Part shown: positions 8,891 through 56,182 of the stretch, one piece after another
Layout: the number at the start of each line of letters is the position of its first letter
How positions within the stretch are numbered: position 1 is the first letter of the stretch
Origin: Escherichia coli
GTDB lineage: Bacteria > Pseudomonadota > Gammaproteobacteria > Enterobacterales > Enterobacteriaceae
Direction: 5' to 3' (one strand)
DNA: 64,000 nucleotides
Assembly (NCBI RefSeq): GCF_003019035.1
Contig: NZ_CP027447.1
Position numbers and translations under genes: made by a program
Notes under the pieces: generated by a model
Told to the model about the DNA's origin: nothing
Seen by the model: the letters and a program-made list of their open reading frames with translations, nothing else
Databases searched by the model: none

Positions 8891-10785
<1,895 letters not shown>

Positions 10786-12084
10786 ATGCGTAAAATTAAA
10801 GGGTTACGTTGGTATATGATCGCACTGGTGACGCTCGGCACCGTGCTTGGTTACCTGACGCGTAACACTGTGGCGGCAGCTGCGCCAACTCTGATGGAAG
10901 AGTTAAACATCTCCACCCAACAGTATTCCTATATCATCGCAGCGTATTCTGCTGCTTATACGGTCATGCAACCGGTAGCGGGTTATGTACTGGATGTGCT
11001 GGGTACGAAAATCGGTTATGCAATGTTTGCTGTACTGTGGGCCGTGTTCTGTGGTGCAACCGCGCTGGCAGGTAGTTGGGGTGGCCTGGCGGTTGCTCGT
11101 GGTGCGGTCGGTGCCGCGGAAGCCGCGATGATTCCGGCGGGTCTGAAAGCCAGCTCCGAATGGTTCCCGGCGAAAGAGCGTTCCATCGCGGTAGGTTACT
11201 TTAACGTAGGTTCTTCGATTGGTGCGATGATTGCGCCGCCGCTGGTGGTATGGGCAATCGTGATGCACAGCTGGCAGATGGCATTTATCATCTCCGGTGC
11301 GTTGAGCTTTATCTGGGCGATGGCATGGCTGATTTTCTACAAGCATCCGCGCGACCAGAAACATCTGACCGATGAAGAACGCGACTACATTATTAATGGT
11401 CAGGAAGCCCAGCACCAGGTTGACACAGCGAAGAAAATGTCCGTTGGTCAGATCCTGCGCAACCGTCAGTTCTGGGGTATCGCGCTGCCGCGCTTTCTGG
11501 CAGAACCGGCATGGGGTACTTTTAACGCGTGGATCCCGCTGTTCATGTTTAAAGTTTACGGCTTTAACCTGAAAGAGATCGCGATGTTTGCCTGGATGCC
11601 GATGCTGTTTGCTGACCTCGGTTGTATCCTCGGTGGTTACCTGCCGCCGCTGTTCCAGCGTTGGTTTGGTGTGAACCTGATCGTTTCCCGTAAGATGGTC
11701 GTAACGCTGGGTGCTGTGCTGATGATTGGCCCGGGTATGATCGGTCTGTTCACCAACCCGTATGTCGCGATTATGCTGCTGTGTATCGGTGGTTTTGCTC
11801 ACCAGGCACTGTCTGGCGCACTGATTACGCTCTCTTCTGACGTGTTCGGTCGTAACGAAGTGGCGACGGCGAACGGTTTAACCGGGATGTCCGCATGGCT
11901 GGCAAGTACGCTCTTTGCTCTGGTGGTTGGTGCACTGGCTGACACCATCGGCTTTAGCCCGCTGTTCGCAGTACTTGCGGTATTCGACCTACTGGGGGCA
12001 CTGGTTATCTGGACGGTATTGCAGAACAAACCGGCGATTGAGGTGGCGCAGGAATCACATAACGATCCCGCACCGCAACATTAA
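10786..12084 (+). CDS. exuT: hexuronate (galacturonate/glucuronate) MFS transporter ExuT
   Basis: ORF 10666-12084 trimmed to MRKIKGLRWYMIALV... (432 aa); MFS topology. Confidence 0.88.
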   Translation: MRKIKGLRWYMIALVTLGTVLGYLTRNTVAAAAPTLMEELNISTQQYSYIIAAYSAAYTVMQPVAGYVLDVLGTKIGYAMFAVLWAVFCGATALAGSWGGLAVARGAVGAAEAAMIPAGLKASSEWFPAKERSIAVGYFNVGSSIGAMIAPPLVVWAIVMHSWQMAFIISGALSFIWAMAWLIFYKHPRDQKHLTDEERDYIINGQEAQHQVDTAKKMSVGQILRNRQFWGIALPRFLAEPAWGTFNAWIPLFMFKVYGFNLKEIAMFAWMPMLFADLGCILGGYLPPLFQRWFGVNLIVSRKMVVTLGAVLMIGPGMIGLFTNPYVAIMLLCIGGFAHQALSGALITLSSDVFGRNEVATANGLTGMSAWLASTLFALVVGALADTIGFSPLFAVLAVFDLLGALVIWTVLQNKPAIEVAQESHNDPAPQH

Positions 12085-12104
12085 GACTTAACGTAAGTTG
12101 TAAT

Positions 12105-12147
12105 GACGAAGCCGCCTGTTCAGGCGGCTTCGTTGTTTAGTTTTTTC
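12105..12147. terminator. bidirectional intrinsic terminator between exuT and the fimbrial adhesin gene
   Basis: gacgaagccgcc tgttca ggcggcttcgt hairpin followed by tgtttagtttttt. Confidence 0.6.
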
Positions 12148-12159
12148 TGGTCTGCGAGG

Positions 12160-13242
12160 TCAATTGATCGTCGGCAATGACGGGGTAAAGATGACCGACA
12201 ATTTACCCATATAATATCCCGCCTGTTTTGCCGTCACGTTAAATTTGTCGACCACCAGCGTCAGCGGAGTGGGAACACACATCACAGCGTAACGGATGCC
12301 TGGAAGCACCACCGGGCGGACATGTTTAAGATTGATGTTGGTCCAGACCATGCTCTCATTGTTGCGCACATCAATTTGCCCACCTGATTCCGGGTCATAC
12401 ATTTTGACACGGTAATCAATACGCTCCCCTTCATCCGTTGAGCTCGCGCCCTGACGATAAATCGAAAACGCACCATTACTGCGTCCTGCCGCCGTTTTTC
12501 CCTCATCTTTTAGCAAAATTTCATAGCTAAGACCGTTACCGTTAAAGCCATCGTACAGGCACATATCCAACATCGTCAGATCTTGCGCGTAGTTGTTGCC
12601 GTTAACGCTGCCTGTTGGATGCAAATCCAGTTGTACGCGTGGCGTGGCGTGGGCGAACTCCGGGAAGAACACGTCGATATGGTTGGGATCGAGGGTGTTC
12701 AGGGTAATATCTGCAAAATAGTCCACTGAAGGGCTATTTGAGTGCAGCTTAACCTGCCCTTTCCAAACGCCGCCAATCGGCAACTTCTTCATTTCTGCCT
12801 GCTCAAGGTAAAGCGTAAGAAACTTCTTATCAGCATAATGTGGGGTTGAATCCCCTGATACGTAGCATTTATACCGATTTGAGTCCCTGAGATCCGTTTG
12901 TGCAACGTATCCTTCACACCCTGGAGCCCCGTCAGTGACATAAGCGTTTTTAAATCCTTTGAGCGTAATCGGCCAACGCATACCACTGCGCTGCTCCGTT
13001 AAATAAATTTGTACTGTCGAGAAATTTCCAGAGTCCGAGCAAGTTTGCTGGCTATTGGGATATGAACATTCATACCACATATACGCGTTATTTCCGGAGG
13101 ACTCTTCCTCGTTCCAGAAGTAATAATCCGCTCTGCCAGCGGCCAAATCATAAGTAATTTCAGCCGTCACATTTGGCGTAGCGTGCCCCCCCGCGACCAT
13201 GCCAAATAAGCATAAAACCATGGCAATTAATCGATTTCTCAT
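12160..13242 (-). CDS. class 5 (CS1/CFA-I-type) fimbrial minor/tip adhesin subunit (CooD/CfaE-like)
   Basis: 360 aa with signal peptide (MRNRLIAMVLCLFGMVAGGHA); last gene of a chaperone-pilin-usher-adhesin operon; size and position match CooD/CfaE. Confidence 0.65.
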   Translation of the reverse strand: MRNRLIAMVLCLFGMVAGGHATPNVTAEITYDLAAGRADYYFWNEEESSGNNAYMWYECSYPNSQQTCSDSGNFSTVQIYLTEQRSGMRWPITLKGFKNAYVTDGAPGCEGYVAQTDLRDSNRYKCYVSGDSTPHYADKKFLTLYLEQAEMKKLPIGGVWKGQVKLHSNSPSVDYFADITLNTLDPNHIDVFFPEFAHATPRVQLDLHPTGSVNGNNYAQDLTMLDMCLYDGFNGNGLSYEILLKDEGKTAAGRSNGAFSIYRQGASSTDEGERIDYRVKMYDPESGGQIDVRNNESMVWTNINLKHVRPVVLPGIRYAVMCVPTPLTLVVDKFNVTAKQAGYYMGKLSVIFTPSLPTIN

Positions 13243-15941
13243 GGTGCAACCTCCCTTTGCGCCGTCTGGACGTTTCCACGTAATTTAGGCTGTTTCAACT
13301 GTGCCTGAACCTGAATAGATTCCGGCAATTGTGAATAACTCACCACGCTACAATTCACATCCCCGCTATAGCGAATGCTGGCGCGTTTCTTCAAAACATT
13401 CAGCGGACATTTCAGGAACTGCTGCCCGGAAAGCAGATACAACTCTTTTTCACCACTGCTAATCTCAAGTGTAAATCCGCCATCTTCAGCCACCAGTAAC
13501 ATGGCGCTATTCAGACCCACCAGCGGGAACTTCTCTACCGATGCGGGTAATAACAAGCGACCAATATAGTTGTAATTAAAACTGGCAGACACTTCGCGAT
13601 AACGTAATTTGCCCGGCAACAGCATTAACTCACGATTTCCCGCACCGTTAATGATGTTGGTTGTTCCTTGCTGGTTACCCTGATTACTGTCGTTAACTTC
13701 AACAAAGCCAGACTGAAATCCAGGATAGGGGAATAACACGCTGTCGCTTTGACCAAGCTGCAATGTTCTGCTGCCAGCCACCCGCGCTTCGAGTTGCAGA
13801 CCCTGACTCTGTTCATCCTGTTCAGAGAAACCTTTCACATCCACCAACACCGCTCCCAGCAAATCATCTGAGCCGCTGGCCCCCAAATTGATGCCATAGC
13901 GACTCACCGCCAGCGTGGAGCTGTATGTCCCGGTGAAGGCCGAGAGATGATCATGGTTCTGGCGATCATAACTGTCTGAGACAGTAGCGTAGACATTTCC
14001 ATATTGGCCATCCCAACGCCCGTTAACCGCGCTGTTTATGGTATCGGTGTTCAAACCGCCGACGGTCACGCCAAGCTCTTTATGGCTGAATGAGTCGTTA
14101 TAAAAGGTATGCGATAACTGCCATGACGTTTGATCGCCATCCTGATCGCTATAACGATAATCAGTAGAAACATTGGTTGAATGGCTGTTGTTATTGCTGT
14201 CCATCGTTGGCGTATCAGATAACGAAAACGACAAGTACAAGCCGTTGTCATCGTTATCGCCACCGTTGTCGTTACGATGGAAAACCCCAAGGGAAGTACT
14301 CAAAATCCAGTCACGCATCACAAAAGCGCGAGAAGCGCTAAGTTGTACGGTCTCGGAAATGCTTTGAGCCGTAGTCTGGCGAAGATAGTTATTTTCAAAG
14401 CTCTGCTGTTTGTCCCAGCGCAAACTATCATCAGTGTTATTTTGTGTGCGGGTATAGCCCAGCATCATATTCCAGCCGACAAAATTCTGTGAAACCGTCG
14501 CGGAAATACTTTCATAACAGCTTAAGGCGTTGTAGCTCTCTCTGTTGTCGGTTGTACAAGCATCACCGTCAGAGTTGGTCCGATAAAAGCCCAACGTCGG
14601 CCATCCCGGATGACTCCAGTTGGCCTGTTGCATATCGCCTTTGCCGCCGTCATCGTTACGGAACACGCTGGCACTGATAGCCAGATTCCCCGCCCCGCCT
14701 AAATCCGCCGTCCAGTTATTACCTAACTCGAAAGCACTTACATCATCGGCATTCGCCAGCCCTGCGTAGAGCTCATATTGCGGATGTAATGGCAGACGAA
14801 CCCCTAGCTGATAAGCTGAACTTTCATCATCAGAAACCTGTGATGTGGTTTTACCTGCCTGCAAGAACCACTGGGCATTTCCGTCTGTCAGACCGCCGGT
14901 TTTGGTAAACGGTACAAGCTCGGTGCGGGTGAGTTGGTTATTTTCATAAACTTTTAACGCCACGCTGTAGCTGCCTGGCGGAAAGGAACTGGTATCAATA
15001 AATTGCGAACCACTATTGAGGTAAAACGATCCCAACAGTTGTTCATTACGATAAGCATCAACACGAGAATTGCGCGAAAGCAGGATCATTACCGGCGTAC
15101 CCTGCTGGCTTTGCGTCTGGTTTAAATAACTGAGTGTCGACCCGATACGCATTCCGTCTATTGCACCGAGTGGCAGGAAGTTAAAAGTAAAGTTTCCACC
15201 TTGCGCATTAAATAATGTGCGGTTGTCCATCCGCCCCGCCTGCACATAATAACGGCGTAAAAAATCATAGCGGTAATAGAGATCGCTGACATCGACATTG
15301 TTGTCGCTGACATCATCTGCATCATAACCGTCGAAATTCCAGTGCGCACCAATATAGCTATTTTCTGTTATTCCCAGTGCGCCATTACCCTGAATTGACA
15401 ACGATTGGTAATCATCCTGAACCAGCACATTAATATCTTGCTGATGTATAAAAGCGTTAACCGTATTTTTGTCTGGATTTAAATACAATGACTTCGAGTT
15501 AAACGCAGAACTCCATTGCGGATTAAGAAATAGCGTTGCTGAACTTTCTTCATCATTGTAGATTATTTCTACTGTCTCAGTATTAAGAAAACCGCATCCT
15601 GAATCAGTACGTACAAAACCACAAGCCAGTTCACCGTGGCGAGCTAAGGGTTGCGATAGTTTTTCTTTCACTGTATGAGCAATTTTTTGGTCGTCAGTGC
15701 TCAATTCAAGTTTGCTGTATAAACTTGATGAATCAAGAAAGGTTACGGTATCAAGATTAACCATAGCATAATATTTACCGAGACTTTTCCCTGCAAAATA
15801 AACCTCGATATACTCCTGCTGTCCCTGAGCAATAACCTCAAAACCAGCGGGAATTTTTGTTAATGTTGCCTTTGCCGGGCTGAGACTCGCCAGGATCAAA
15901 AGAGCCAGTAATTTTTTGTCCATGGCTGTCCTGTAATCCAT
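13239..15941 (-). CDS. class 5 fimbrial outer-membrane usher (CooC/CfaC-like)
   Basis: 900 aa with signal peptide; beta-rich with G/N/D/S/T-rich segments; 4 nt overlap with the downstream adhesin gene; size and operon position match alternate chaperone-usher ushers. Confidence 0.7.
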   Translation of the reverse strand: MDYRTAMDKKLLALLILASLSPAKATLTKIPAGFEVIAQGQQEYIEVYFAGKSLGKYYAMVNLDTVTFLDSSSLYSKLELSTDDQKIAHTVKEKLSQPLARHGELACGFVRTDSGCGFLNTETVEIIYNDEESSATLFLNPQWSSAFNSKSLYLNPDKNTVNAFIHQQDINVLVQDDYQSLSIQGNGALGITENSYIGAHWNFDGYDADDVSDNNVDVSDLYYRYDFLRRYYVQAGRMDNRTLFNAQGGNFTFNFLPLGAIDGMRIGSTLSYLNQTQSQQGTPVMILLSRNSRVDAYRNEQLLGSFYLNSGSQFIDTSSFPPGSYSVALKVYENNQLTRTELVPFTKTGGLTDGNAQWFLQAGKTTSQVSDDESSAYQLGVRLPLHPQYELYAGLANADDVSAFELGNNWTADLGGAGNLAISASVFRNDDGGKGDMQQANWSHPGWPTLGFYRTNSDGDACTTDNRESYNALSCYESISATVSQNFVGWNMMLGYTRTQNNTDDSLRWDKQQSFENNYLRQTTAQSISETVQLSASRAFVMRDWILSTSLGVFHRNDNGGDNDDNGLYLSFSLSDTPTMDSNNNSHSTNVSTDYRYSDQDGDQTSWQLSHTFYNDSFSHKELGVTVGGLNTDTINSAVNGRWDGQYGNVYATVSDSYDRQNHDHLSAFTGTYSSTLAVSRYGINLGASGSDDLLGAVLVDVKGFSEQDEQSQGLQLEARVAGSRTLQLGQSDSVLFPYPGFQSGFVEVNDSNQGNQQGTTNIINGAGNRELMLLPGKLRYREVSASFNYNYIGRLLLPASVEKFPLVGLNSAMLLVAEDGGFTLEISSGEKELYLLSGQQFLKCPLNVLKKRASIRYSGDVNCSVVSYSQLPESIQVQAQLKQPKLRGNVQTAQREVAP

Positions 15942-16013
15942 AATAAATACTAAAATAGTTAAAAGAAGGGAGGACTTGCCTCCCTTTATTGCATGTTAAT
16001 TCTGTTATCCAGA

Positions 16014-16514
16014 TTAGAGAGCCTGGGACAGATAAATGCTAACTACGCCACGGTAGATACCCGTTTCCAGAACACCTTTGGTAGCCTGGGAAAACATCAG
16101 TGGTTTAGCCAGCGAACCGTTAGTTAACGCATCGGAAGCAAAGATTTTCGTTGCGGTAAACGTGGTTGCCGCATCAGCTTTAATCTCTTCACCACCCCAG
16201 GTTACGGTCAGCGGAACAATTTTGCTGGCGTCCAGGCTCTGAACCAGTTGCGCAGGCGAAACTAACTGCATTTTCACGTCTTTGGTCGTGTCATTTGACC
16301 AGATTTTAGTCATTAACTGGTAAGATTGCAGACCCTGACCTGGCAGATATTGCATTTCTACTGCCTTCGGCAGTGCAGTATTATCGGTCTGCGTCATATC
16401 CAGAGCAGCATCAACGTTAGCAGTAACAGTGATATCTTTTTGTACTGCTAATGCAGAACCTGCAACGGAAAACATTGCCGCTACCAGAAGAGATTTTGCG
16501 AATACCTTTTTCAT
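16014..16514 (-). CDS. class 5 fimbrial major pilin subunit (CooA/CfaB-like)
   Basis: 166 aa; signal peptide MKKVFAKSLLVAAMFSVAGSALA; mature region resembles CS1/CFA-I major pilins (ITVTANVD..., C-terminal ...GVVSIYLSQAL). Confidence 0.72.
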   Translation of the reverse strand: MKKVFAKSLLVAAMFSVAGSALAVQKDITVTANVDAALDMTQTDNTALPKAVEMQYLPGQGLQSYQLMTKIWSNDTTKDVKMQLVSPAQLVQSLDASKIVPLTVTWGGEEIKADAATTFTATKIFASDALTNGSLAKPLMFSQATKGVLETGIYRGVVSIYLSQAL

Positions 16515-16543
16515 TACTATTCCTTGGTTTATTACAATGATAA

Positions 16544-17260
16544 TTAATGGACCGCCAGCTCAAACTCGCCATTGTCCTTGGTGATCCAGTTATTATATTT
16601 GACAACGATTTTATCGTAGCCAGATATGCTTTCTAAAACTCTTTCCTGACCAGGGAAAATGTTTTTATTTACGGTCTGTGTTCTGCACTCCGCAGAACCA
16701 CTATTTTTACAATAGGCAATGGTTAATATCTTCAGACGTTGATTGCCATTATTGATTAGCTTTTTATCGGCGTTAATATCTAACTTTGCCACAGGCTGCT
16801 GAGGTGGCACGCTGACAACAATCCCCCAAATTAAGTTAACCGTTAATTGCATGGAGAGATCTTTTTTATTATCTGTTGCATCATCAATGCTGGGTACAGC
16901 TTCAAATTTAACCCGATAGTTTTTTTCTTTTTGCTCAGGTTCCATTGCCACAAAACGCACGGTTTTGCTACTACCGCCAGGCAAAGCAAATTTGGGCGGC
17001 ATTATCACAAGTTGGTTTGCATCGCCTGAAGTTACTTCGATTTCTTTTTCTTGTGGTGTTGATGGATTATCGATACGAAATACGGTTGCCTTTATATATT
17101 GGACTTCATTCGTTTTCGATATTACACGAACACTTCCTTCTCCCTGACTGTTTATAGATACAGACATAGGATATACAGTCATATTAGATTGTGCGAAAAA
17201 TGATGTGCACAGAAGTAAGACAGGCCCGAGCCGTAATAATCGATTAATTTTCGCCACCAT
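16544..17260 (-). CDS. class 5 fimbrial periplasmic chaperone (CooB/CfaA-like)
   Basis: 238 aa with signal peptide; first gene of the operon; size and position match CooB/CfaA. Confidence 0.7.
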   Translation of the reverse strand: MVAKINRLLRLGPVLLLCTSFFAQSNMTVYPMSVSINSQGEGSVRVISKTNEVQYIKATVFRIDNPSTPQEKEIEVTSGDANQLVIMPPKFALPGGSSKTVRFVAMEPEQKEKNYRVKFEAVPSIDDATDNKKDLSMQLTVNLIWGIVVSVPPQQPVAKLDINADKKLINNGNQRLKILTIAYCKNSGSAECRTQTVNKNIFPGQERVLESISGYDKIVVKYNNWITKDNGEFELAVH

Positions 17261-17551
17261 TTAATCAGTTTTACATTATTTCATAAAAAGTTGGCGCATT
17301 AGAAATCATACTATTTTTCAAGTCAACACAAAAAAGCATCTTTAGATAAAATTATTTATTCTCAAAAAAATACAACCTACTGAAAAATATGTTTTTTCAC
17401 AATTCAACATAATCAATTTTAGGAATATATTAATATTCACAACATCAATAAATAATATTATTTCAATCATGCAATTTATATTTTAACAATGGCATACGCA
17501 TGCATAAAGTGGTATGATAACTTTGTCCGCATTCCACTCCTGGAGACGCAT
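17261..17551. promoter_or_regulatory. strongly AT-rich intergenic region: putative fimbrial operon promoter (leftward) and exuR promoter (rightward)
   Basis: About 290 bp of very low GC (runs such as ttatttattctcaaaaaaatacaacc, aatatattaatattcacaacatcaataaataatatt) between divergent genes. Confidence 0.45.
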
Positions 17552-18328
17552 ATGGAAATCACTGAACCACGCCGTTTGTATCAACAACTTGCCGCTGATC
17601 TGAAAGAGCGCATCGAACAGGGCGTCTATCTGGTGGGTGATAAACTGCCTGCCGAACGCTTTATTGCCGATGAAAAAAACGTCAGCCGCACCGTGGTTCG
17701 TGAAGCCATCATCATGCTGGAAGTTGAAGGCTATGTCGAAGTGCGTAAAGGTTCAGGTATTCATGTGGTTTCCAACCAGCCGCGCCATCAGCAATCGGCT
17801 GACAATAATATGGAGTTTGCCAATTACGGTCCGTTTGAGCTACTGCAAGCCCGCCAGCTCATCGAAAGTAATATTGCCGAGTTCGCGGCAACTCAGGTCA
17901 CAAAACAGGACATCATGAAATTGATGGCCATCCAGGAGCAGGCACGCGGCGAACAATGCTTCCGTGATTCCGAGTGGGATTTGCAGTTCCATATTCAGGT
18001 AGCCCTGGCGACGCAGAACTCCGCCCTGGCGGCTATCGTTGAAAAAATGTGGACCCAGCGTAGTCATAACCCGTACTGGAAAAAACTGCACGAACACATT
18101 GATGCCCGTACCGTCGATAACTGGTGTGATGACCACGATCAAATCCTCAAGGCGCTGATTCGCAAAGATCCTCATGCTGCTAAGCTGGCAATGTGGCAGC
18201 ACCTGGAAAACACCAAGATCATGTTATTTAACGAAACCAGCGACGATTTCGAGTTCAATGCCGACCGCTATCTGTTCGCCGAAAACCCGGTGGTGCATCT
18301 CGATACAGCCACCAGCGGCAGTAAATGA
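17552..18328 (+). CDS. exuR: GntR-family hexuronate regulon repressor ExuR
   Basis: ORF 17489-18328 trimmed to [21 protein letters not shown]... (258 aa); GntR-type helix-turn-helix N-terminus. Confidence 0.88.
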
Positions 18329-21894: not shown

Positions 21895-22060
21895 CTCCTC
21901 GTTTCAGATTGTTGACAAAGTGCGCGTTGTTCATGCCGGATGCGGCGTGAACGCCTTATCCGGCCTACAAAAACATGCAAATTCAATACATTGCAGAAAC
22001 CTCGTAGGCCTGATAAGCATAGCGCATCAGGCAGTTTTGCGTTTGCCATCAGTCTCAAAC
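21895..22060. repeat. REP/BIME module flanked by short hairpins
   Basis: gccggatgcggcgtgaacgccttatccggcctac ... gtaggcctgataagcatagcgcatcaggca; flanking hairpins cgaggaggaacactcctcg and cgaggagaaacgctcctcg. Confidence 0.7.
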
Positions 22061-40090: not shown

Positions 40091-40467
<377 letters not shown>

Positions 40468-45156: not shown

Positions 45157-46728
45157 ATGGCCAACATCGAAATCAGACAAGAAACGCCAACTGCGTTTTA
45201 TATAAAAGTTCACGACACAGATAATGTGGCAATTATTGTTAATGATAATGGCCTGAAAGCAGGAACGCGTTTTCCGGATGGGCTGGAATTAATTGAACAT
45301 ATTCCCCAGGGGCATAAAGTCGCATTGCTGGACATTCCAGCTAATGGTGAAATTATTCGTTATGGCGAAGTGATTGGTTACGCCGTGCGCGCAATCCCAC
45401 GCGGAAGCTGGATCGACGAATCAATGGTTGTACTACCGGAAGCGCCGCCGTTACACACGCTGCCACTGGCAACCAAAGTCCCGGAACCCTTACCGCCGCT
45501 GGAAGGATACACCTTTGAGGGCTATCGCAATGCCGATGGCAGCGTGGGCACTAAAAACCTGCTCGGCATCACCACCAGCGTCCACTGTGTAGCAGGCGTG
45601 GTGGACTATGTAGTAAAAATCATTGAACGCGATCTGCTACCGAAATACCCGAACGTCGATGGCGTGGTGGGGCTGAATCATTTGTACGGCTGTGGCGTGG
45701 CGATTAACGCACCGGCGGCAGTTGTGCCTATTCGTACCATCCACAATATTTCGCTGAACCCTAACTTTGGCGGCGAAGTAATGGTGATTGGTCTGGGTTG
45801 TGAAAAGTTGCAGCCTGAGCGCCTGCTGACTGGAACGGATGATGTGCAAGCTATTCCAGTAGAAAGCGCCAGCATTGTCAGTTTGCAGGATGAAAAGCAT
45901 GTCGGCTTTCAGTCCATGGTCGAGGATATTTTGCAGGTCGCCGAACGCCATTTGCACAAACTGAATCGACGGCAGCGAGAAACCTGTCCGGCTTCAGAAC
46001 TGGTTGTCGGCATGCAGTGCGGTGGCAGCGATGCGTTTTCTGGCGTAACGGCAAACCCGGCGGTTGGGTATGCGTCTGATCTACTGGTGCGCTGCGGCGC
46101 AACGGTGATGTTTTCAGAAGTCACGGAAGTGCGTGACGCGATCCATCTGCTGACACCACGCGCAGTGAACGAAGAGGTCGGCAAACGGCTGCTGGAGGAG
46201 ATGGAGTGGTACGATAACTATCTCAATATGGGAAAAACCGACCGCAGCGCCAACCCTTCGCCGGGCAACAAGAAAGGCGGTCTGGCAAATGTGGTGGAGA
46301 AAGCGCTCGGCTCCATTGCTAAATCGGGTAAAAGCGCAATTGTTGAAGTGCTGTCGCCTGGTCAACGCCCGGCTAAACGCGGATTAATTTACGCCGCGAC
46401 GCCAGCCAGCGATTTTGTCTGTGGCACGCAACAGGTGGCTTCGGGTATCACCGTGCAAGTGTTTACGACCGGTCGCGGTACGCCGTACGGCCTGATGGCG
46501 GTACCCGTCATTAAAATGGCAACCCGCACCGAGCTGGCGAACCGCTGGTTTGATTTAATGGATATTAATGCGGGCACCATCGCTACCGGCGAAGAAACTA
46601 TTGAAGAGGTGGGCTGGAAGTTGTTCCACTTTATTCTCGACGTCGCCAGCGGGAAGAAGAAAACCTTCTCAGATCAATGGGGACTGCATAACCAGCTGGC
46701 GGTGTTTAACCCGGCACCGGTGACCTGA
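45157..46728 (+). CDS. garD: galactarate dehydratase GarD
   Basis: 523 aa; related to altronate dehydratase (SAF/UxaA family); divergent from garP. Confidence 0.88.
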
Positions 46729-46876
46729 TTTCTTTTGGAACGTCCCTCGCAAAACATGGCCTTAGTGCCATGTTTTTATTGTTTAAAGTCCCCACGTCCA
46801 TTAATAATGCATTTGCATTACCTTAGTTCAAGCTTATAATTTGAGCAGAAAACAGGCTGTAAAAGGACAGTGAATC

Positions 46877-47212
46877 ATGCCCGCTAATGCTCGCTCTCAC
46901 GCTGTACTGACCACTGAATCAAAGGTCACGATACGCGGACAAACAACTATCCCCGCGCCAGTGCGTGAGGCCTTAAAACTGAAGCCAGGCCTGGACAGCA
47001 TTCATTACGAAATTCTGCCTGGTGGGCAAGTATTTATGTGCCGACTGGGAGATGAACAGGAGGATCATACTATGAATGCATTTTTGCGTTTTCTGGATGC
47101 AGATATCCAGAACAACCCGCAAAAAACTCGTCCATTCAACATTCAACAAGGAAAGAAACTTGTCGCTGGCATGGACGTCAACATTGATGATGAGATTGGC
47201 GACGACGAATAA
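46877..47212 (+). CDS. prlF: antitoxin PrlF (SohA), AbrB/SpoVT-type
   Basis: 111 aa; acidic C-terminal tail (DDEIGDDE); stop overlaps the yhaV start. Confidence 0.88.
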   Translation: MPANARSHAVLTTESKVTIRGQTTIPAPVREALKLKPGLDSIHYEILPGGQVFMCRLGDEQEDHTMNAFLRFLDADIQNNPQKTRPFNIQQGKKLVAGMDVNIDDEIGDDE

Positions 47213-47676
47213 TGGATTTTCCACAAAGGGTTAATGGTTGGGCGCTATATGCTCATCCCTGTTTCCAGGAAACCTACGACGCTTTAGTTGCCGAAGTCGA
47301 GACATTAAAGGGAAAAGATCCTGAAAATTATCAGAGAAAAGCCGCCACAAAGTTATTGGCGGTAGTCCATAAAGTGATTGAGGAGCATATCACGGTCAAT
47401 CCATCATCACCGGCATTCCGTCATGGCAAGTCGTTAGGCTCTGGGAAAAATAAAGACTGGTCACGGGTAAAATTTGGTGCTGGTCGTTATCGTCTCTTCT
47501 TTCGTTATAGTGAAAAAGAGAAAGTCATCATTCTGGGATGGATGAACGATGAAAACACTCTGCGCACCTACGGTAAAAAAACAGATGCCTATACCGTATT
47601 CAGCAAAATGTTAAAAAGAGGACATCCTCCTGCCGACTGGGAAACCCTCACCCGAGAGACAGAAGAAACCCATTGA
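47212..47676 (+). CDS. yhaV: ribonuclease toxin YhaV (RelE/ParE superfamily)
   Basis: 154 aa; ATG overlaps the prlF stop (ATGA-type overlap at 47212). Confidence 0.88.
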   Translation: MDFPQRVNGWALYAHPCFQETYDALVAEVETLKGKDPENYQRKAATKLLAVVHKVIEEHITVNPSSPAFRHGKSLGSGKNKDWSRVKFGAGRYRLFFRYSEKEKVIILGWMNDENTLRTYGKKTDAYTVFSKMLKRGHPPADWETLTRETEETH

Positions 47677-47730
47677 TGGTGTTCACAATGCCCGCCGAAC
47701 GCATTCGTGTTGACCAGCGGGCACCCTTTC

Positions 47731-48540
47731 TCACTCCCCGACCAGAATCACTTCAACCCCAGCCTTTCGCAGGCCTTCCAGACTATCCGCAGGAATGCCT
47801 TCATCAACAATGATCATGTCGATACGTTGAGTATCAATGATCTTATGTAAACTGGAACGATTGAACTTACTGGAATCGGTGACCACGATGATCCGTTCCG
47901 CAACTTCGCACATCCGACGGTTTAAACGGGCTTCATCTTCATTATGCGTGCTGACGCCGCGCTCCAGATCGATCGCATCTACACCAAGAAACAGCATATC
48001 GAAGTGGTAATTTTGCAGCGATTGCTCAGCCTGATCACCGTAAAAAGATTGCGACTGACGGCGCAAATGCCCTCCGGTCATCAGCAGCTCAACGCCTTCC
48101 GCTTCCAGCAACGCATTAGCCACGTTCATACCGTTGGTCATCGCAATTACGTCGGTGTGCTTGCGCATCAGACGAGCAATCTCAAAAGTGGTGGTCCCGG
48201 AATCGAGGATCACCCGATGACCTGGCTGAATCAACTCAACGGCAGCTTTCGCAACGCTGCGTTTCATTGCGGTGTTCAGCGCGCTTTTATCTTCCACTGA
48301 TGGCTCGACTGACGGCGTCGTGCTATCGCAGATCAACGCGCCGCCATAGGCACGCACAGCGATCCCCTGCTTTTCCAGAAACGCCAGATCGTTGCGGATC
48401 GTCACAGTAGATACGCCATACAATGCCGACAGATCGTTAACCTGCACACTTCCTTGCTGGCGCAGGCGTTGAATGATCTGCTCTCGTCGCTCACTGGTGC
48501 CTGTCACTCGCTTCTCGCCTGAAGCGTCGGTATTACTCAT
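47731..48540 (-). CDS. agaR: DeoR-family repressor of the aga regulon, AgaR
   Basis: 269 aa; DeoR-type N-terminal helix-turn-helix and sugar-binding C-terminus. Confidence 0.88.
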
Positions 48541-48788
48541 AGTAAGTCCTTTCGTAAAACTTTCGTTTCATTTCGTTTTGCCTATTAACGCCTTTCTATT
48601 AAGCAAATGCAAGCCCACCTTACCCATTGGCGCAAGCTACTCTCGTTTCAGTGGCTTTCATTATGTTTCTTTTGTGAATCAGATCAGAAAACTATTATCT
48701 TTCGTTTTATTTTTATCTCACCATGGCGCAGTATCAACTGAAACAAAACGAAAGATTAATATCGCAGTAATCTGAACTGGAGAGGAAA
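48541..48788. promoter_or_regulatory. agaR / kbaZ divergent promoter region with repeated CTTTCGTTT-type motifs (AgaR-operator-like)
   Basis: Repeats ctttcgtaaaactttcgtttcatttcgtttt, tctttcgttttat and aaacaaaacgaaag in the intergenic region. Confidence 0.5.
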
Positions 48789-50069
48789 GTGAAACATCTG
48801 ACAGAAATGGTGAGACAGCACAAAGAGGGCAAAACAAATGGGATTTATGCCGTTTGTTCCGCACATCCGCTGGTGCTGGAAGCTGCAATCCGCTACGCCA
48901 GTGCAAACCAAACGCCGTTACTGATTGAAGCAACCTCCAATCAGGTGGACCAGTTCGGCGGTTATACCGGAATGACGCCCGCCGATTTTCGCGGCTTTGT
49001 TTGTCAGCTCGCCGACTCGTTGAATTTCCCACAGGATGCGTTGATTCTGGGTGGCGACCATCTGGGGCCAAACCGCTGGCAAAACCTGCCTGCCGCTCAG
49101 GCAATGGCCAATGCCGATGATTTGATTAAAAGCTACGTGGCGGCAGGATTCAAAAAAATTCACCTTGATTGCAGCATGTCCTGTCAGGACGATCCGATTC
49201 CCTTAACTGATGACATCGTGGCCGAACGCGCCGCTCGTCTGGCGAAAGTGGCGGAAGAAACCTGCCGTGAACATTTTGGCGCGGCCGATCTGGAGTATGT
49301 CATTGGTACCGAAGTGCCGGTGCCTGGCGGCGCGCATGAAACCTTAAGCGAGCTGGCGGTCACCACGCCGGATGCCGCCCGCGCCACACTGGAAGCCCAT
49401 CGCCACGCCTTTGAAAAGCAGGGCCTGAATGCCATCTGGCCACGCATTATTGCCCTGGTGGTTCAACCCGGCGTCGAATTCGATCACACCAACGTTATTG
49501 ATTATCAGCCAGCTAAAGCGACCGCCTTAAGCCAGATGGTCGAAAACTACGAAACGCTGATTTTCGAAGCGCACTCAACCGATTACCAAACGCCGCAATC
49601 GTTGCGCCAGCTGGTGATTGACCACTTTGCCATTCTGAAAGTTGGCCCGGCGCTGACCTTCGCCCTGCGTGAAGCTCTGTTCTCTCTGGCGGCGATTGAA
49701 GAAGAACTGGTACCAGCAAAAGCCTGTTCTGGTCTGCGTCAGGTGCTGGAAAACGTGATGCTCGACCGCCCGGAATACTGGCAAAGCCACTACCACGGTG
49801 ACGGCAACGCGCGTCGTCTGGCGCGTGGTTATAGCTACTCGGATCGCGTGCGCTATTACTGGCCGGACAGCCAGATTGATGACGCTTTCGCTCATCTGGT
49901 TCGTAATCTGGCGGATTCACCAATTCCGCTACCGCTCATCAGCCAGTATTTGCCGCTGCAATACGTGAAAGTTCGCTCCGGCGAGCTGCAGCCAACACCA
50001 CGGGAACTCATTATCAACCATATTCAGGACATCCTGGCGCAGTACCACACAGCCTGTGAAGGCCAATAA
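48789..50069 (+). CDS. kbaZ: tagatose-bisphosphate aldolase non-catalytic subunit KbaZ (AgaZ)
   Basis: 426 aa; recognised sequence. Confidence 0.88.
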
Positions 50070-50091
50070 GCAAAACAAAGAGGAACACGCT

Positions 50092-50565
50092 ATGCCAAAT
50101 ATTGTTTTAAGCCGGATTGATGAGCGTTTGATTCACGGTCAGGTCGGCGTTCAGTGGGTCGGATTTGCGGGGGCAAATCTGGTGCTGGTAGCCAACGATG
50201 AGGTTGCCGAAGATCCGGTACAACAAAACCTGATGGAAATGGTACTGGCAGAAGGGATCGCCGTACGTTTCTGGACGCTGCAAAAAGTCATCGACAACAT
50301 TCATCGCGCCGCCGATCGACAGAAAATCCTGCTGGTTTGTAAAACACCTGCCGATTTCCTGACGCTGGTAAAAGGTGGCGTTCCGGTGAATCGCATTAAC
50401 GTTGGCAATATGCACTACGCCAATGGCAAGCAACAAATCGCCAAAACGGTTTCTGTGGATGCGGGTGATATCGCAGCATTTAACGACCTGAAAGCCGCTG
50501 GGGTGGAATGCTTCGTTCAGGGCGTCCCGACAGAGCCTGCAGTGGACCTCTTTAAATTACTTTGA
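50092..50565 (+). CDS. agaV: PTS N-acetylgalactosamine-specific IIB component AgaV
   Basis: ORF trimmed to MPNIVLSRIDERLIHGQVG... (157 aa); mannose-family IIB. Confidence 0.85.
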   Translation: MPNIVLSRIDERLIHGQVGVQWVGFAGANLVLVANDEVAEDPVQQNLMEMVLAEGIAVRFWTLQKVIDNIHRAADRQKILLVCKTPADFLTLVKGGVPVNRINVGNMHYANGKQQIAKTVSVDAGDIAAFNDLKAAGVECFVQGVPTEPAVDLFKLL

Positions 50566-50575
50566 GGGATTCATC

Positions 50576-51355
50576 ATGGAAATCAGTCTGTTGCAGGCAT
50601 TCGCGTTGGGCATTATCGCCTTTATCGCTGGCCTGGATATGTTTAACGGCCTAACCCATATGCACCGCCCGGTGGTCCTCGGCCCGTTGGTCGGGCTGGT
50701 ACTTGGCGATCTGCATACCGGTATTTTAACCGGCGGTACGCTGGAACTGGTGTGGATGGGGCTGGCCCCGCTGGCGGGCGCACAGCCGCCTAACGTGATT
50801 ATCGGTACTATCGTCGGCACGGCGTTTGCCATTACTACTGGCGTGAAACCCGATGTCGCGGTCGGTGTCGCCGTACCTTTCGCTGTCGCAGTACAGATGG
50901 GGATTACCTTCCTGTTCTCGGTGATGTCCGGCGTGATGTCCCGATGCGACCGGATGGCGGAGAACGCCGATACTCGCGGCATTGAACGCGTGAACTATCT
51001 GGCACTGCTGGCACTCGGCACTTTCTATTTTCTCTGCGCTTTCCTGCCTATCTACTTCGGCGCGGAACATGCAAAAACCATCATTGATGTCCTGCCGCAA
51101 CGATTAATCGACGGCCTCGGCGTCGCGGGCGGCATCATGCCAGCAATCGGTTTTGCCGTGTTGCTGAAAATCATGATGAAAAACGTCTACATCCCCTACT
51201 TCATCCTGGGCTTTGTTGCCGCAGCCTGGCTCAAGTTACCGGTGTTGGCTATTGCTGCCGCTGCGCTGGCGATGGCGCTGATCGACCTGCTGCGTAAATC
51301 TCCTGAACCGACTCAACCTGCGGCACAGAAAGAGGAATTTGAAGATGGCATCTAA
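50576..51355 (+). CDS. agaW: PTS N-acetylgalactosamine-specific IIC component AgaW (full length)
   Basis: 259 aa mannose-family IIC; intact here, whereas K-12 retains only a truncated remnant as I recall. Confidence 0.8.
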   Translation: MEISLLQAFALGIIAFIAGLDMFNGLTHMHRPVVLGPLVGLVLGDLHTGILTGGTLELVWMGLAPLAGAQPPNVIIGTIVGTAFAITTGVKPDVAVGVAVPFAVAVQMGITFLFSVMSGVMSRCDRMAENADTRGIERVNYLALLALGTFYFLCAFLPIYFGAEHAKTIIDVLPQRLIDGLGVAGGIMPAIGFAVLLKIMMKNVYIPYFILGFVAAAWLKLPVLAIAAAALAMALIDLLRKSPEPTQPAAQKEEFEDGI

Positions 51356-52223
51356 TCAAACCACCCTGCCGAACGTCAGCGAAAATGAAGAAACACTGCT
51401 GACTGGCGTCAATGAAAACGTGTATGAAGATCAGAGCATTGGCGCGGAGCTGACGAAAAAAGATATCAACCGCGTCGCCTGGCGTTCCATGTTGTTACAG
51501 GCTTCTTTCAACTACGAACGTATGCAGGCTTCCGGCTGGCTGTACGGCCTGCTGCCAGCACTGAAAAAGATCCACACTAATAAACGCGACCTGGCGCGCG
51601 CTATGAAGGGGCATATGGGTTTCTTCAATACCCATCCGTTTCTGGTGACGTTTGTTATCGGCATTATCCTTGCGATGGAGCGTTCTAAGCAGGACGTTAA
51701 CAGTATTCAGAGCACCAAAATTGCCGTCGGTGCGCCGCTCGGCGGGATTGGCGATGCGATGTTCTGGCTAACGCTACTGCCGATTTGTGGCGGGATAGGT
51801 GCAAGCCTCGCGCTACAAGGCTCTATTCTTGGCGCTGTCGTCTTTATTGTGCTGTTCAACGTGGTGCACCTGGGGCTGCGTTTTGGTCTGGCGCATTATG
51901 CTTACCGCATGGGCGTGGCGGCGATTCCACTCATTAAAGCAAATACCAAAAAAGTCGGCCATGCTGCGTCTATCGTTGGGATGACGGTAATCGGCGCGCT
52001 GGTGGCAACCTATGTTCGTTTAAGCACCACGCTGGAAATCACAGCGGGCGACGCAGTGGTTAAGTTACAGGCTGATGTTATCGACAAACTGATGCCTGCC
52101 TTCTTACCACTGGTCTACACCCTGACCATGTTCTGGCTGGTACGCCGCGGCTGGAGTCCGCTGCGCCTGATTGCAGTTACCGTGGTTCTCGGCATCGTCG
52201 GTAAATTCTGCCATTTCCTTTAA
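51339..52223 (+). CDS. agaE: PTS N-acetylgalactosamine-specific IID component AgaE
   Basis: 294 aa mannose-family IID; start may be a few codons downstream. Confidence 0.8.
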   Translation: MKMASNQTTLPNVSENEETLLTGVNENVYEDQSIGAELTKKDINRVAWRSMLLQASFNYERMQASGWLYGLLPALKKIHTNKRDLARAMKGHMGFFNTHPFLVTFVIGIILAMERSKQDVNSIQSTKIAVGAPLGGIGDAMFWLTLLPICGGIGASLALQGSILGAVVFIVLFNVVHLGLRFGLAHYAYRMGVAAIPLIKANTKKVGHAASIVGMTVIGALVATYVRLSTTLEITAGDAVVKLQADVIDKLMPAFLPLVYTLTMFWLVRRGWSPLRLIAVTVVLGIVGKFCHFL

Positions 52224-52240
52224 ATACAATGAGGTATTAG

Positions 52241-52675
52241 ATGTTAAGTATTATTTTGACAGGGCATGGCGGGTTTGCCAGCGGCATGGAAAAAGCAATG
52301 AAGCAAATCCTCGGCGAGCAATCGCAGTTTATTGCCATCGATTTTCCCGAAACCTCAAGCACCGCGCTGCTTACATCGCAGCTTGAAGAGGCCATCGTCC
52401 AACTGGATTGTGAAGACGGCATTGTTTTTCTGACGGATTTGCTGGGCGGCACGCCGTTTCGCGTAGCTTCAACGCTGGCGATGCAAAAACCGGGCTGTGA
52501 AGTGATCACCGGCACAAATTTGCAACTATTACTGGAAATGGTGCTGGAGCGCGAAGGGTTAAGCGGTGAAGAGTTCCGTGTGCAGGCGCTGGAGTGTGGA
52601 CACCGTGGGCTGACCAGTCTGGTGGACGAACTTGGTCGCTGCCATGAGGAATGTCCGGTCGAGGAAGGAATATGA
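52241..52675 (+). CDS. agaF: PTS mannose-family IIA component AgaF
   Basis: 144 aa; N-terminal MLSIILTGHGGFA IIA-type motif. Confidence 0.8.
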   Translation: MLSIILTGHGGFASGMEKAMKQILGEQSQFIAIDFPETSSTALLTSQLEEAIVQLDCEDGIVFLTDLLGGTPFRVASTLAMQKPGCEVITGTNLQLLLEMVLEREGLSGEEFRVQALECGHRGLTSLVDELGRCHEECPVEEGI

Positions 52676-53805
52676 CACACGTTCTGCGCGCCAGAAGGCT
52701 GCTGACCGAAGAGGGATGGCTCGATGACCATCAGTTGCGTATTGCTGACGGTGTAATCGCAGCAATCGAACCGATTCCAGTGGGCGTGACTGAACGCGAT
52801 GCGGAACTGCTCTGCCCCGCTTACATCGACACCCATGTACACGGTGGTGCGGGCGTTGATGTAATGGATGACGCGCCGGATGCGCTCGACAAGCTGGCAA
52901 TGCACAAGGCACGCGAAGGTGTCGGCAGTTGGTTACCGACCACCGTAACCGCGCCGCTTAATACCATTCATGCGGCGCTGAAACGTATTGCTCTACGCTG
53001 CCAGCGTGGCGGACCTGGTGCGCAAGCGCTGGGGAGTTATCTCGAAGGACCGTACTTCACGCCGCAGAATAAAGGCGCGCATCCGCCGGAGCTGTTTCGC
53101 GAGCTGGAAATTGCCGAGCTGGATCAATTGATTGCCGTTTCTCAGCACACCTTGCGCGTGGTAGCGCTGGCACCAGAAAAAGAAGGGGCATTGCAGGCCA
53201 TCCGCCATCTTAAACAGCAAAACGTACGGGTGATGCTGGGGCATAGCGCGGCGACCTGGCAACAAACCCGTGCCGCGTTTGACGCTGGTGCCGACGGCCT
53301 GGTGCATTGCTATAACGGGATGACAGGTTTACATCACCGCGAACCGGGAATGGTTGGCGCGGGATTAACGAACAAGCGCGCCTGGCTGGAACTGATAGCC
53401 GATGGTCATCATGTACATCCGGCGGCGATGTCGCTGTGTTGTTGCTGTGCGAAAGAGAGAATCGTGCTGATCACCGACGCGATGCAGGCAGCCGGGATGC
53501 CGGATGGTCGCTATACGTTATGTGGTGAAGAAGTGCAGATGCACGATGGCGTTGTCCGTACCGCGTCCGGTGGGCTGGCGGGCAGTACGCTGTCTGTCGA
53601 TGCGGCAGTGCGCAACATGGTCGAGTTGACGGGCGTAACGCCTGCGGAAGCCATCCATATGGCATCGCTGCATCCGGCGCGTATGCTGGGTGTTGATGGT
53701 GTTCTGGGATCGCTTAAACCGGGCAAACGCGCCAGCGTCGTTGCGCTGGATAGCGGGCTGCATGTGCAACAAATCTGGATTCAGGGTCAATTAGCTTCGT
53801 TTTGA
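52672..53805 (+). CDS. agaA: N-acetylgalactosamine-6-phosphate deacetylase AgaA (full length)
   Basis: ORF trimmed to MTHVLRARRLL... (377 aa); start overlaps the agaF stop; NagA-like amidohydrolase. Confidence 0.82.
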   Translation: MTHVLRARRLLTEEGWLDDHQLRIADGVIAAIEPIPVGVTERDAELLCPAYIDTHVHGGAGVDVMDDAPDALDKLAMHKAREGVGSWLPTTVTAPLNTIHAALKRIALRCQRGGPGAQALGSYLEGPYFTPQNKGAHPPELFRELEIAELDQLIAVSQHTLRVVALAPEKEGALQAIRHLKQQNVRVMLGHSAATWQQTRAAFDAGADGLVHCYNGMTGLHHREPGMVGAGLTNKRAWLELIADGHHVHPAAMSLCCCCAKERIVLITDAMQAAGMPDGRYTLCGEEVQMHDGVVRTASGGLAGSTLSVDAAVRNMVELTGVTPAEAIHMASLHPARMLGVDGVLGSLKPGKRASVVALDSGLHVQQIWIQGQLASF

Positions 53806-53874
53806 TGGTTTGCTCCTTTATTGGGCCTTCACTTCCCCCGTAAGGCCTTTCTTTTTCTTTCGTTGTGCTCTGTG

Positions 53875-53940
53875 CAGGGTGTCGGATGCGACGCTGACGC
53901 GTCTTCTTCGACCTACGGTACGCCGCATCCGGCAATCGGT
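53875..53940. repeat. REP-like palindromic repeats
   Basis: gtcggatgcgacgctgacgcgtcttcttcgacc ... acggtacgccgcatccggca. Confidence 0.6.
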
Positions 53941-53989
53941 GAACATAGCGACGTTATCACGCAATCCTTTAATCTTCCCTTGTCTTTTC

Positions 53990-54154
53990 TTTCAATGATC
54001 ACAAATTTCGTTTTATTTCTTTTTTCTCCATTGAACTTTCAGTTTCTTTTCTATAGATTTTAATCAACGAAAGACATCACCAAGTGAAATGAAACGAAAG
54101 GTAAGCGAAAGCGACAACGCCCGACGTCAAGTTCATCAGACTAAGGATTGAGTT
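53990..54154 (+). promoter_or_regulatory. agaS promoter region with AgaR-operator-like repeats
   Basis: AT-rich region with ctttcagtttctttt, gaaatgaaacgaaag and gcgaaagcg motifs similar to those at agaR/kbaZ. Confidence 0.45.

Positions 54155-55309: not shown

Positions 55310-56182
<873 letters not shown>

Follow-up and report, generated by a model that had tools for sequence, protein, structure and literature searches.

The CS1-like (eafABCD) chaperone-usher locus between exuT and exuR of Escherichia coli and its variable adhesive tip

Which fimbrial system occupies the space between the hexuronate genes exuT and exuR in some E. coli chromosomes, and how did it come to be there? The window analyzed here, a stretch of 64,000 nucleotides of E. 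coli DNA, contains four co-directional minus-strand open reading frames (ORFs) that fill positions 12160-17260 between these two core genes, in the place given by a preliminary description made from the letters alone. The ORF list holds no plus-strand ORF of at least 80 aa inside the block. In K-12 (NCM3722), where that description had expected the genes to be missing, the exuT-exuR spacer is just 129 bp long and none of the four (0/4) is present. The four genes very probably constitute an intact alternate (class 5 / alpha) chaperone-usher operon, the chromosomal CS1-like / eafABCD locus of Escherichia. The genes and protein domains are:

10786-12084, plus strand: core gene flanking the operon on the left, hexuronate transporter exuT (annotated in RefSeq for SCU-301, a near-identical strain)
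12160-13242, minus strand: 360-aa member of the CfaE/CblD family, tip adhesin / assembly initiator (Pfam CblD, PDB CfaE, AF2 model)
12163-12684, minus strand: C-terminal pilin domain of the adhesin, about residues 187-360
12685-13179, minus strand: N-terminal adhesin domain of the adhesin, about residues 22-186
13239-15923, minus strand: outer-membrane usher, 894 aa, or 900 aa for the ORF reaching to 15941 (Pfam, NCBIfam, CfaC comparison)
16014-16514, minus strand: major pilin, CS1/CfaB type, 166 aa (Pfam Fimbrial_CS1, PDB, CfaB comparison)
16544-17260, minus strand: periplasmic chaperone, CfaA type, 238 aa (PDB and CfaA comparison, Pfam)
17552-18328, plus strand: exuR, GntR-family hexuronate regulator, right flank, core gene (RefSeq annotation)

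The exuT ORF in the ORF list reaches further upstream than the RefSeq-annotated start. For the usher, RefSeq uses the second ATG, at 15923 (894 aa), a choice supported by the AGGA that stands 7 nt upstream of it. The usher stop and the adhesin start share 4 nt (ATGA, 13239-13242).

Had the four proteins shown no similarity to alternate chaperone-usher components, the operon would have to be reinterpreted; all four fall in the alternate families. The chaperone is 36% identical to CfaA (E 2e-39), matches 4ncd (8e-34) and CfaA (2e-31) in a PDB sequence search, and carries Pfam PapD_N (1e-7). The pilin was said to resemble CS1/CFA-I major subunits, and it does: it hits Pfam Fimbrial_CS1 (1.4e-23), retrieves CfaB (4e-22) as well as CS17 and CS1 subunits from the PDB, and is 41% identical to CfaB, with VQKDITVTA opposite VEKNITVTA. 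Its mature N-terminus VQKDITVTANVD aligns to VEKNITVTASVD of CfaB, which is the CfaB donor strand. The mature CfaB chain in the PDB starts opposite pilin residue 24 and the mature CfaA chain opposite chaperone residue 25; both window proteins would thus carry signal peptides. The usher has the Pfam domains Usher_TcfC (6.4e-60), TcfC E-set (2.5e-20) and CooC_C (2.4e-5) and aligns to CfaC end to end (29% identity over 900 columns, E 5e-103); a PDB sequence search gave no match for it, and it was therefore assigned from Pfam and CfaC. The adhesin matches Pfam CblD (1.9e-94) and CfaE in the PDB (7e-24). Its AlphaFold model (AF2; pLDDT 91.8, pTM 0.86) superposes in Foldseek on the CfaE crystal structure 2hb0 over about 360 columns and both domains (TM 0.75-0.76, E 8e-25), the two-domain adhesin-plus-pilin fold that the preliminary description had proposed to look for. 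Clusters of truncated, 210-aa adhesins also exist.

The order chaperone, major pilin, usher and tip adhesin, together with the protein sizes, reproduces the family layout: the plasmid-borne CFA/I operon of ETEC H10407 (cfaABCE, plasmid p948) encodes proteins of 238/170/868/360 aa, against 238/166/894/360 aa here. All four proteins are homologous between the two operons, the pilin donor strand is conserved and the adhesin has the same two-domain fold. Gene order, an alpha-clade usher, a CS1/CfaB pilin, a two-domain CfaE/CooD/CblD minor subunit and a CfaA/CooB chaperone place the operon in class 5 / alpha. By homology with CFA/I, Sec would export all four proteins and the CfaA-like chaperone would cap pilin and adhesin subunits in the periplasm. 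The CfaE-like two-domain protein would prime assembly at the TcfC/CfaC-like usher and end up at the tip, and hundreds of CfaB-like pilins would polymerise by donor-strand exchange via the conserved N-terminal strand.

The preliminary description left open whether this is a described fimbrial type. It is: the locus is already known as CS1-like / eafABCD and is annotated in RefSeq. In strain SE11, the CS1-like fimbrial operon is ECSE_3375-3378 (Oshima 2008, PMC2608844), and in E. coli W, eafABCD was placed between exuT and exuR (Archer 2011, PMC3032704). Wurpel 2013, as quoted in PMC6033998 and PMC4552563, counts the CS1-like locus among 38 chaperone-usher types; the locus has been described as typical of phylogroup B1 (PMC4552563). 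As an alpha-type four-gene cluster between exuT and exuR, on the chromosome, the window operon belongs to this type: it shares the site, the four genes and the alpha-type usher, and differs in its minority allele class and in a rare variant of the adhesin domain. The E. coli W cluster was said to have no tip adhesin (PMC3032704); the fourth gene is a tip adhesin, contrary to that report, and the literature is not unanimous on this point.

Other named systems are more distant. NCBIfam gives its best models as those of Salmonella Typhi Tcf (tcfABCD) for usher, chaperone and adhesin, and as CblA of the Burkholderia cenocepacia cable pilus (cblBACD) for the pilin, and the Pfam TcfC E-set and Usher_TcfC domains are common to these systems and the window operon. 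All NCBIfam scores nevertheless stay below the equivalog cut-offs: 134 bits against 500 for TcfA, 117 against 225 for CblA, 94 against 384 for TcfB, 543 against 1428 for TcfC and 105 against 589 for TcfD, whose model spans adhesin residues 130-351 only. The scores of the best models thus reach 18-52% of the cut-offs. Genus and chromosomal location differ as well, and the window adhesin domain is unrelated to TcfD at the sequence level. Nearest outside Escherichia is an unnamed alpha-type operon of Klebsiella, Kluyvera, Enterobacter, Buttiauxella and Pseudocitrobacter with the same four-gene order, an 898-aa TcfC-type usher and adhesins 40-46% identical to that of the window; it sits between lysA-lysR and an Asp/Glu racemase gene rather than between exuT and exuR.

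Several noncoding elements accompany the genes:

12102-12137, no strand assigned: G+C-rich hairpin, the native intrinsic terminator of exuT, also 22 nt downstream of the convergent adhesin gene (z -4.3 and -4.4 on the two strands)
15966-15986, minus strand: candidate mRNA stabiliser or partial terminator in the pilin-usher gap, a hairpin ending in a U-rich tail (z only -1.45, at about -16 kcal/mol)
17261-17505, no strand assigned: AT-rich upstream region, part of the insert (alignable among alleles)
17486-17457, minus strand: promoter-like hexamers (consensus match only)
17506-17551, plus strand: exuR-proximal control region kept from the ancestral spacer, whose sequence from AAAGTGGTAT onward is homologous to the spacers of K-12, E. 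fergusonii, Salmonella and Enterobacter
17507-17522: ExuR-box-like element, resembling the box in the uxaC-exuT control region (10538-10553)

A bidirectional terminator had been proposed on the exuT side. The hairpin is real, but a good T-run is present on the plus strand alone, so that the proposal is right only in part; the element serves exuT as its native terminator, and its core is kept in K-12, ST131, O157 and O145, all of which lack the operon. In the pilin-usher hairpin, the stem is kept and the loop varies in eight alleles, E. albertii included, with one-sided changes only; as a candidate element, it would set pilin excess or act as an attenuator. The 291 bp from chaperone to exuR (17261-17551) have a G+C content of 25.8%, bearing out the very AT-rich stretch of about 290 bp reported earlier. 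Positions 17261-17505 presumably hold the operon promoter and are likely an H-NS target. Given a promoter region of 26% G+C, expression is probably conditional and H-NS-repressed. The promoter and terminator calls come from consensus matching, with matches about as frequent as chance would give, and the ExuR-box pattern is likewise counted in the window at chance level. No Rfam family match was obtained inside the locus. The upstream region contains neither GATC sites nor long homopolymer tracts, and we rejected a phase-variation switch. One imperfect inverted repeat of 20 nt (17341-17360 / 17447-17466) falls in AT-rich sequence, has no recombinase in its vicinity and probably arose by chance. 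We also rejected the idea that the insertion destroyed the exuR operator, the box of the filled haplotype being as close to the uxaC-exuT box as that of K-12.

The block had been called the clearest accessory content of the window. It is accessory with respect to K-12 but is no strain-private islet: 1916 of 5426 complete E. coli genomes (35%) carry the locus, at 1919 places that are all chromosomal. The one high-identity PLSDB "plasmid" examined, 353 kb long and with a 95% usher match, has the uxaA-uxaC-exuT...exuR-yqj genes and is therefore a mislabelled chromosome, so we discarded plasmid carriage. A scan of genome contigs with exact 8-residue peptide words, which under-samples distant relatives, returned only four loci; the E. 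albertii operon surfaced through protein search alone. The window allele class is in the minority, with five genomes at 99% identity or more and 167 at 95-99%, against 1683 at 80-90%. Across the operon, the common class (e.g. O104:H4, locus L003) is 85% identical to the window in DNA; the encoded usher and pilin are 95% and 96% identical, the chaperone 84% and the adhesin 78%. Across Escherichia species, the alleles show deep divergence and a mosaic structure. Between allele classes, omega is 0.03-0.12 for chaperone, pilin and usher at dS of 0.4-1.4, showing strong purifying selection on the structural and assembly genes.

These values bear on whether the operon does anything at present. It could be a silent relic, intact by inertia, never assembled and without current function: the window holds no activator gene, the extreme AT-richness of the upstream region recalls cryptic fimbrial operons of E. 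coli that H-NS silences, the operon has suffered IS1 insertion or deletion in some genomes (H11; AR_0069), truncated adhesin clusters occur besides, and a literature search found no pilus, haemagglutination, adhesion or other functional study of the locus. We consider this improbable. Such low omega at dS up to 1.4 means that very long divergence has left the reading frames intact, 1890 of the 1916 carriers keep at least 80% of the locus, and transcripts of it have been detected in STEC (PMC6033998). Local hypervariability of the adhesin domain on a conserved scaffold, described below, would also be difficult to account for unless selection acted on a functional protein that is exposed.

How the operon reached its site is the second part of the question. 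The exuT gene directly adjoins exuR in E. fergusonii, Salmonella salamae and Enterobacter kobei, which makes the operon an insertion, as the preliminary description had supposed from K-12. E. albertii and three divergent (cryptic) Escherichia lineages have it at the same site, so the insertion is old. The insert begins just past the exuT terminator (12138-12159) and ends just before the ExuR-box-like element (~17505). Insertion would have occurred in an Escherichia ancestor, between the exuT terminator and the exuR operator/promoter, and filled and empty haplotypes would both have persisted, shuffled by homologous recombination. The reverse, an operon ancestral at this site and deleted from K-12-like strains with no insertion at all, could draw on the same occurrence in E. 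albertii and the cryptic lineages and on the lack of any mark of insertion: IS, integrase and tRNA are all absent, and the junctions show neither direct nor inverted repeats. Individual lineages certainly do lose the operon, since both states occur within phylogroup B2 with exuR 99.7% identical. As an account of the locus, deletion is quite improbable all the same: the exuR-proximal spacer (~50 bp) of the three outgroups is almost base for base that of K-12, the filled haplotype being the diverged one, and the nearest non-Escherichia homologues (Klebsiella, Kluyvera) lie at another locus, beside lysA-lysR. The G+C content of the operon genes (39.6-48.2%) is moreover below that of exuT and uxaC (53.6-54.3%), a comparison with core flanks that the preliminary description had suggested. 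The operon is thus an old presence/absence polymorphism.

What sets the operon apart is its tip. Among 20 Escherichia variants of the adhesin, mean identity is 56% in the N domain against 91% in the C-terminal pilin domain (range 84-100%), and the N domains form 16 groups when clustered at 80% identity. Chaperone, pilin and usher of the window are 99-100% identical to those of strain 142, but the adhesin is just 79% identical: the N domain is swapped independently of the backbone. The window variant is rare: among the 5426 complete E. coli genomes, only 4 have it at 95% identity or above. In CfaE, the receptor pocket is built around Arg181 with R67, H140 and R182 and is conserved in the ETEC class 5 colonisation factors CFA/I, CS1, CS2, CS4, CS14, CS17 and CS19 (PMC7573445). 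HMMER, BLASTP and an 82-sequence MAFFT alignment all place R67, R181 and R182 of CfaE opposite gaps, both in the window adhesin and in four further alleles from Escherichia, a result read from sequence alignments of loop regions and not from superposed coordinates. As the N domain diversifies and has no Arg67/Arg181 pocket, the receptor is probably other than that of ETEC adhesins and allele-specific.

It is almost certainly wrong to read the operon as a variant or orthologue of a colonisation factor described in pathogens (CS1, CFA/I, another ETEC class 5 pilus, Tcf or the cable pilus) that would mark its strain as a pathogen: its best NCBIfam models are TcfA, TcfC, TcfD and CblA and its best solved structures are CFA/I components, but the scores are far under the cut-offs, identity to CfaA/B/C/E is just 36/41/29/28%, the context is chromosomal and core rather than an ETEC plasmid, no Rns/CfaD-type (AraC-type) activator gene adjoins the operon or occurs in the window, the Arg181 pocket is missing from the alignments, and the closest strain was isolated from the rectal swab of a student in good health. 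Judged by sequence, then, the window operon has no orthologue in CFA/I, CS1, Tcf or Cbl.

Commensal and pathogenic E. coli commonly carry the CS1-like / eafABCD operon, a functionally uncharacterised adhesin locus that has served as a typing marker for fimbrial repertoires. For studies of expression and binding, it matters that the fourth gene is a genuine CfaE-like tip adhesin whose binding domain comes in many swapped variants; these two points leave the class of the system as already understood, and the only unusual feature of the operon is its very variable adhesive tip. We tentatively raise the possibility, without holding it to be probable, that this tip is a hypervariable receptor-binding cassette on a conserved commensal class 5 pilus, with at least 16 N-domain types reassorted across backbones and Escherichia species, all lacking the ETEC Arg pocket. 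If true and undescribed, such a cassette would offer a natural repertoire of specificities for hosts or glycans, or of variants that escape immunity or phages, comparable to the PapG or FimH classes but on a class 5 pilus of commensal E. coli.

Four co-directional genes occupy the minus strand between exuT and exuR, at the place reported in the preliminary description (ORF listing of the window, with flanks from the RefSeq annotation of strain SCU-301):

10786-12084, exuT, flank
12160-13242, minus strand, ORF, tip adhesin, 360 aa
13239-15941, minus strand, ORF, usher, 900 aa (RefSeq start at the second ATG, 15923, 894 aa)
16014-16514, minus strand, ORF, major pilin, 166 aa
16544-17260, minus strand, ORF, chaperone, 238 aa
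17552-18328, exuR, flank

The RefSeq annotation of SCU-301 already names all four operon genes correctly. An AGGA motif lies 7 nt 5' of the second usher ATG, and the usher gene ends in an ATGA overlap with the start of the adhesin gene. The ORF listing contains no plus-strand ORF of at least 80 aa within the block. The genes are poorer in G+C (chaperone 39.6%, pilin 46.5%, usher 46.6%, adhesin 48.2%) than nearby core genes (exuT 54.3%, uxaC 53.6%), and the region upstream of the operon, noted earlier as very AT-rich over about 290 bp on the exuR side, spans 291 bp with 25.8% G+C.

The proposed class 5 (CS1/CFA-I-like) identity was borne out for all four proteins by Pfam, PDB and comparison with cfaABCE of ETEC H10407. 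The usher carries the Pfam domains Usher_TcfC (6e-60), TcfC E-set and CooC_C and aligns end to end with CfaC (29% identity, E 5e-103). The pilin belongs to the Fimbrial_CS1 family, is 41% identical to CfaB and matches the solved CfaB, CS17 and CS1 subunits in the PDB; its predicted mature N-terminus, VQKDITVTANVD, aligns with VEKNITVTASVD, the donor strand of CfaB. The chaperone shares 36% identity with CfaA. The adhesin matches Pfam CblD (1.9e-94) and, in the PDB, CfaE, and its AlphaFold model (76 homologues as input; pLDDT 91.8, pTM 0.86) superposes on the CfaE crystal structure across both domains (TM 0.75), in agreement with the expected two-domain adhesin-plus-pilin fold. These family matches and the adhesin model, together with cfaABCE protein sizes almost exactly those of the window operon, establish it as a class 5, or alpha, chaperone-usher system on every structural criterion. 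Archer et al. described the cluster as having no tip adhesin (PMC3032704), a statement contradicted by the CblD match and CfaE-like model of the fourth gene product.

A named pathogen fimbria is rejected: the best NCBIfam matches, the TcfA/B/C/D and CblA equivalog models, reach only 18-52% of their curated cut-offs, and identity to the CFA/I proteins is 28-41%. The receptor pocket of CfaE consists of R67, H140, R181 and R182, with R181 conserved in ETEC class 5 adhesins (PMC7573445). At the level of sequence alignment, R67, R181 and R182 are opposite gaps in the window adhesin and four other Escherichia alleles, in three independent alignments.

Of 5426 complete E. coli genomes, 1916 contain operon DNA, in every case on the chromosome, and 1890 of these carriers cover at least 80% of it. 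K-12, ST131, O157 and O145 lack the operon and have in common a nearly identical 129-bp exuT-exuR spacer. Since both the hairpin of the exuT terminator (12102-12137) and the final ~46 bp 5' of exuR (from 17506) are retained in carriers, the accessory segment measures ~5.35 kb, starting at 12138-12159 and ending near 17505. No mobile-element features were seen at the junctions. In E. fergusonii, Salmonella enterica subsp. salamae and Enterobacter kobei exuT directly adjoins exuR, and over the exuR-proximal ~50 bp the K-12 spacer is almost identical to those of E. fergusonii, Salmonella and Enterobacter. In all alleles with the operon this stretch is distinct, diverged by several substitutions and small indels (window 17506-17551 against compared loci L002, L024, L025 and L026), so that the insertion goes together with another exuR leader/promoter haplotype. 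The same site is filled in E. albertii and three divergent Escherichia lineages, whereas the nearest relatives outside the genus, in Klebsiella and Kluyvera (adhesins 40-46% identical), lie at another locus, beside lysA-lysR. With empty outgroups, diverged carriers and relatives located elsewhere, the operon is an insertion, ancient and genus-level, that persists as a presence/absence polymorphism.

Several database entries and degraded loci deserve mention. A 5741-base metagenome-assembled "Lachnospiraceae" contig (SFGN01000125.1) is mis-binned E. coli exuR-operon-exuT (DNA identity 96.9% for the usher, 99.3% for exuR). An unnamed E. coli plasmid in PLSDB (NZ_MG591698.1, 353,691 bases) has the chromosomal order uxaA-uxaC-exuT-operon-exuR-yqjA...yqjF and looks like a chromosome mislabelled as a plasmid. 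In AR_0069 a deletion joins exuT and the pilin gene, both truncated, in strain C21 an IS1 insertion is associated with a split chaperone gene, and clusters of truncated 210-aa adhesins exist, Shigella boydii among them.

Alleles at this single site differ widely: among complete E. coli genomes, 172 belong to the window allele class (at least 95% identity), while identity to the window is about 91% in the F11/MS15236 class and about 85% in the common class, which numbers 1683 genomes. Between classes dS is 0.4-1.4 and omega 0.03-0.12 for chaperone, pilin and usher; function in these genes has been preserved across a divergence comparable in depth to that separating Escherichia species. Relationships are mosaic: at the chaperone gene the window shares 88% identity with E. 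albertii and only 80% with the common E. coli allele, the chaperone of O104:H4 shows 95% identity to that of lineage E69, and MS15236 matches E. albertii at 92.5% in the pilin domain of the adhesin.

Across 20 Escherichia adhesin variants, mean identity is 56% (minimum 43%) in the N-terminal domain (residues 40-150) and 91% in the pilin domain; grouped at an identity of at least 80%, the N domains fall into 16 sets. Strain 142 is 99-100% identical to the window in chaperone, pilin and usher but only 79% in the adhesin; the N domain is therefore swapped as a whole. Few genomes carry the window's N-domain DNA (at least 99% identity in 1 genome, 95-99% in 3, 60-80% in 1795).

Neither next to the operon nor elsewhere in the 64-kb window is there an AraC-type activator, and promoter-like hexamers in the extremely AT-rich upstream region are consensus matches only. 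The pilin-usher intergenic region contains a hairpin and U-rich tail (15966-15986), kept in 8/8 alleles examined, with a variable loop; to judge by other fimbrial operons, it could raise the pilin-to-usher ratio, although the statistics are weak. As an ExuR-box-like element beside exuR is kept in carriers, we do not claim altered exuR control by the insertion. An imperfect 20-nt inverted repeat (17341-17360/17447-17466; 85% complementary, 86 nt apart) overlaps a promoter-like site in the AT-rich upstream region; with no recombinase nearby, it probably arose by chance in DNA of such composition.

The closest match to the window is SCU-301, from a rectal swab of a healthy student, with 3 SNPs over the first 60 kb; register is lost from 60177 on through an indel between rsmI and lpoA. 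The sole operon difference, at 12755, is non-synonymous (adhesin residue 163 is Q in the window and L in SCU-301) and sits inside the otherwise conserved motif GGVWKGQVKL. At 58449-60129 agaI is followed directly by rsmI, and yraHIJK, the fimbrial operon found at this position in K-12, is missing; the strain thus lacks one K-12 fimbrial operon yet has the exuT-exuR one. According to the table of Oshima et al., CFT073, UTI89 and 536 have no yra (PMC2608844). The aga/gam N-acetylgalactosamine/galactosamine cluster (~46600-59200: kbaZ, agaVWEF, agaA/nagA, agaS, kbaY, agaBCD, agaI) is annotated as complete in near-identical SCU-301. K-12 has a deletion in this cluster. Rfam gives a clear rnpB match (40091-40467, minus strand) and a borderline one to the ES036 (CssrF) sRNA (21971-22011, plus strand; 38.4 bits, gathering score 37.6).

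The operon seen in the preliminary description is real and was correctly interpreted, and the locus is already known: named, annotated and widespread. It was reported as the "CS1-like fimbrial operon" ECSE_3375-3378 of commensal SE11, conserved in E24377A, HS, ATCC 8739, 536 and SMS-3-5 and missing from MG1655, O157 Sakai, CFT073 and UTI89 (Oshima et al., 2008; PMC2608844). In E. coli W, Archer et al. (2011) placed the locus, as eafABCD, between exuT and exuR (PMC3032704). Later papers count "CS1-like" as one of the fimbrial types defined by Wurpel et al. (2013). CS1-like fimbriae are described as typical of phylogroup B1 (PMC4552563), serve as a PCR marker among UTI isolates (PMC8249706) and have reported transcripts in STEC (PMC6033998). 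The literature searches turned up no functional study of the exuT-exuR operon and none that shows what its pilus binds. The remaining novelty lies in the hypervariable, reassorted adhesin domain and in the trans-species mosaicism of the locus.
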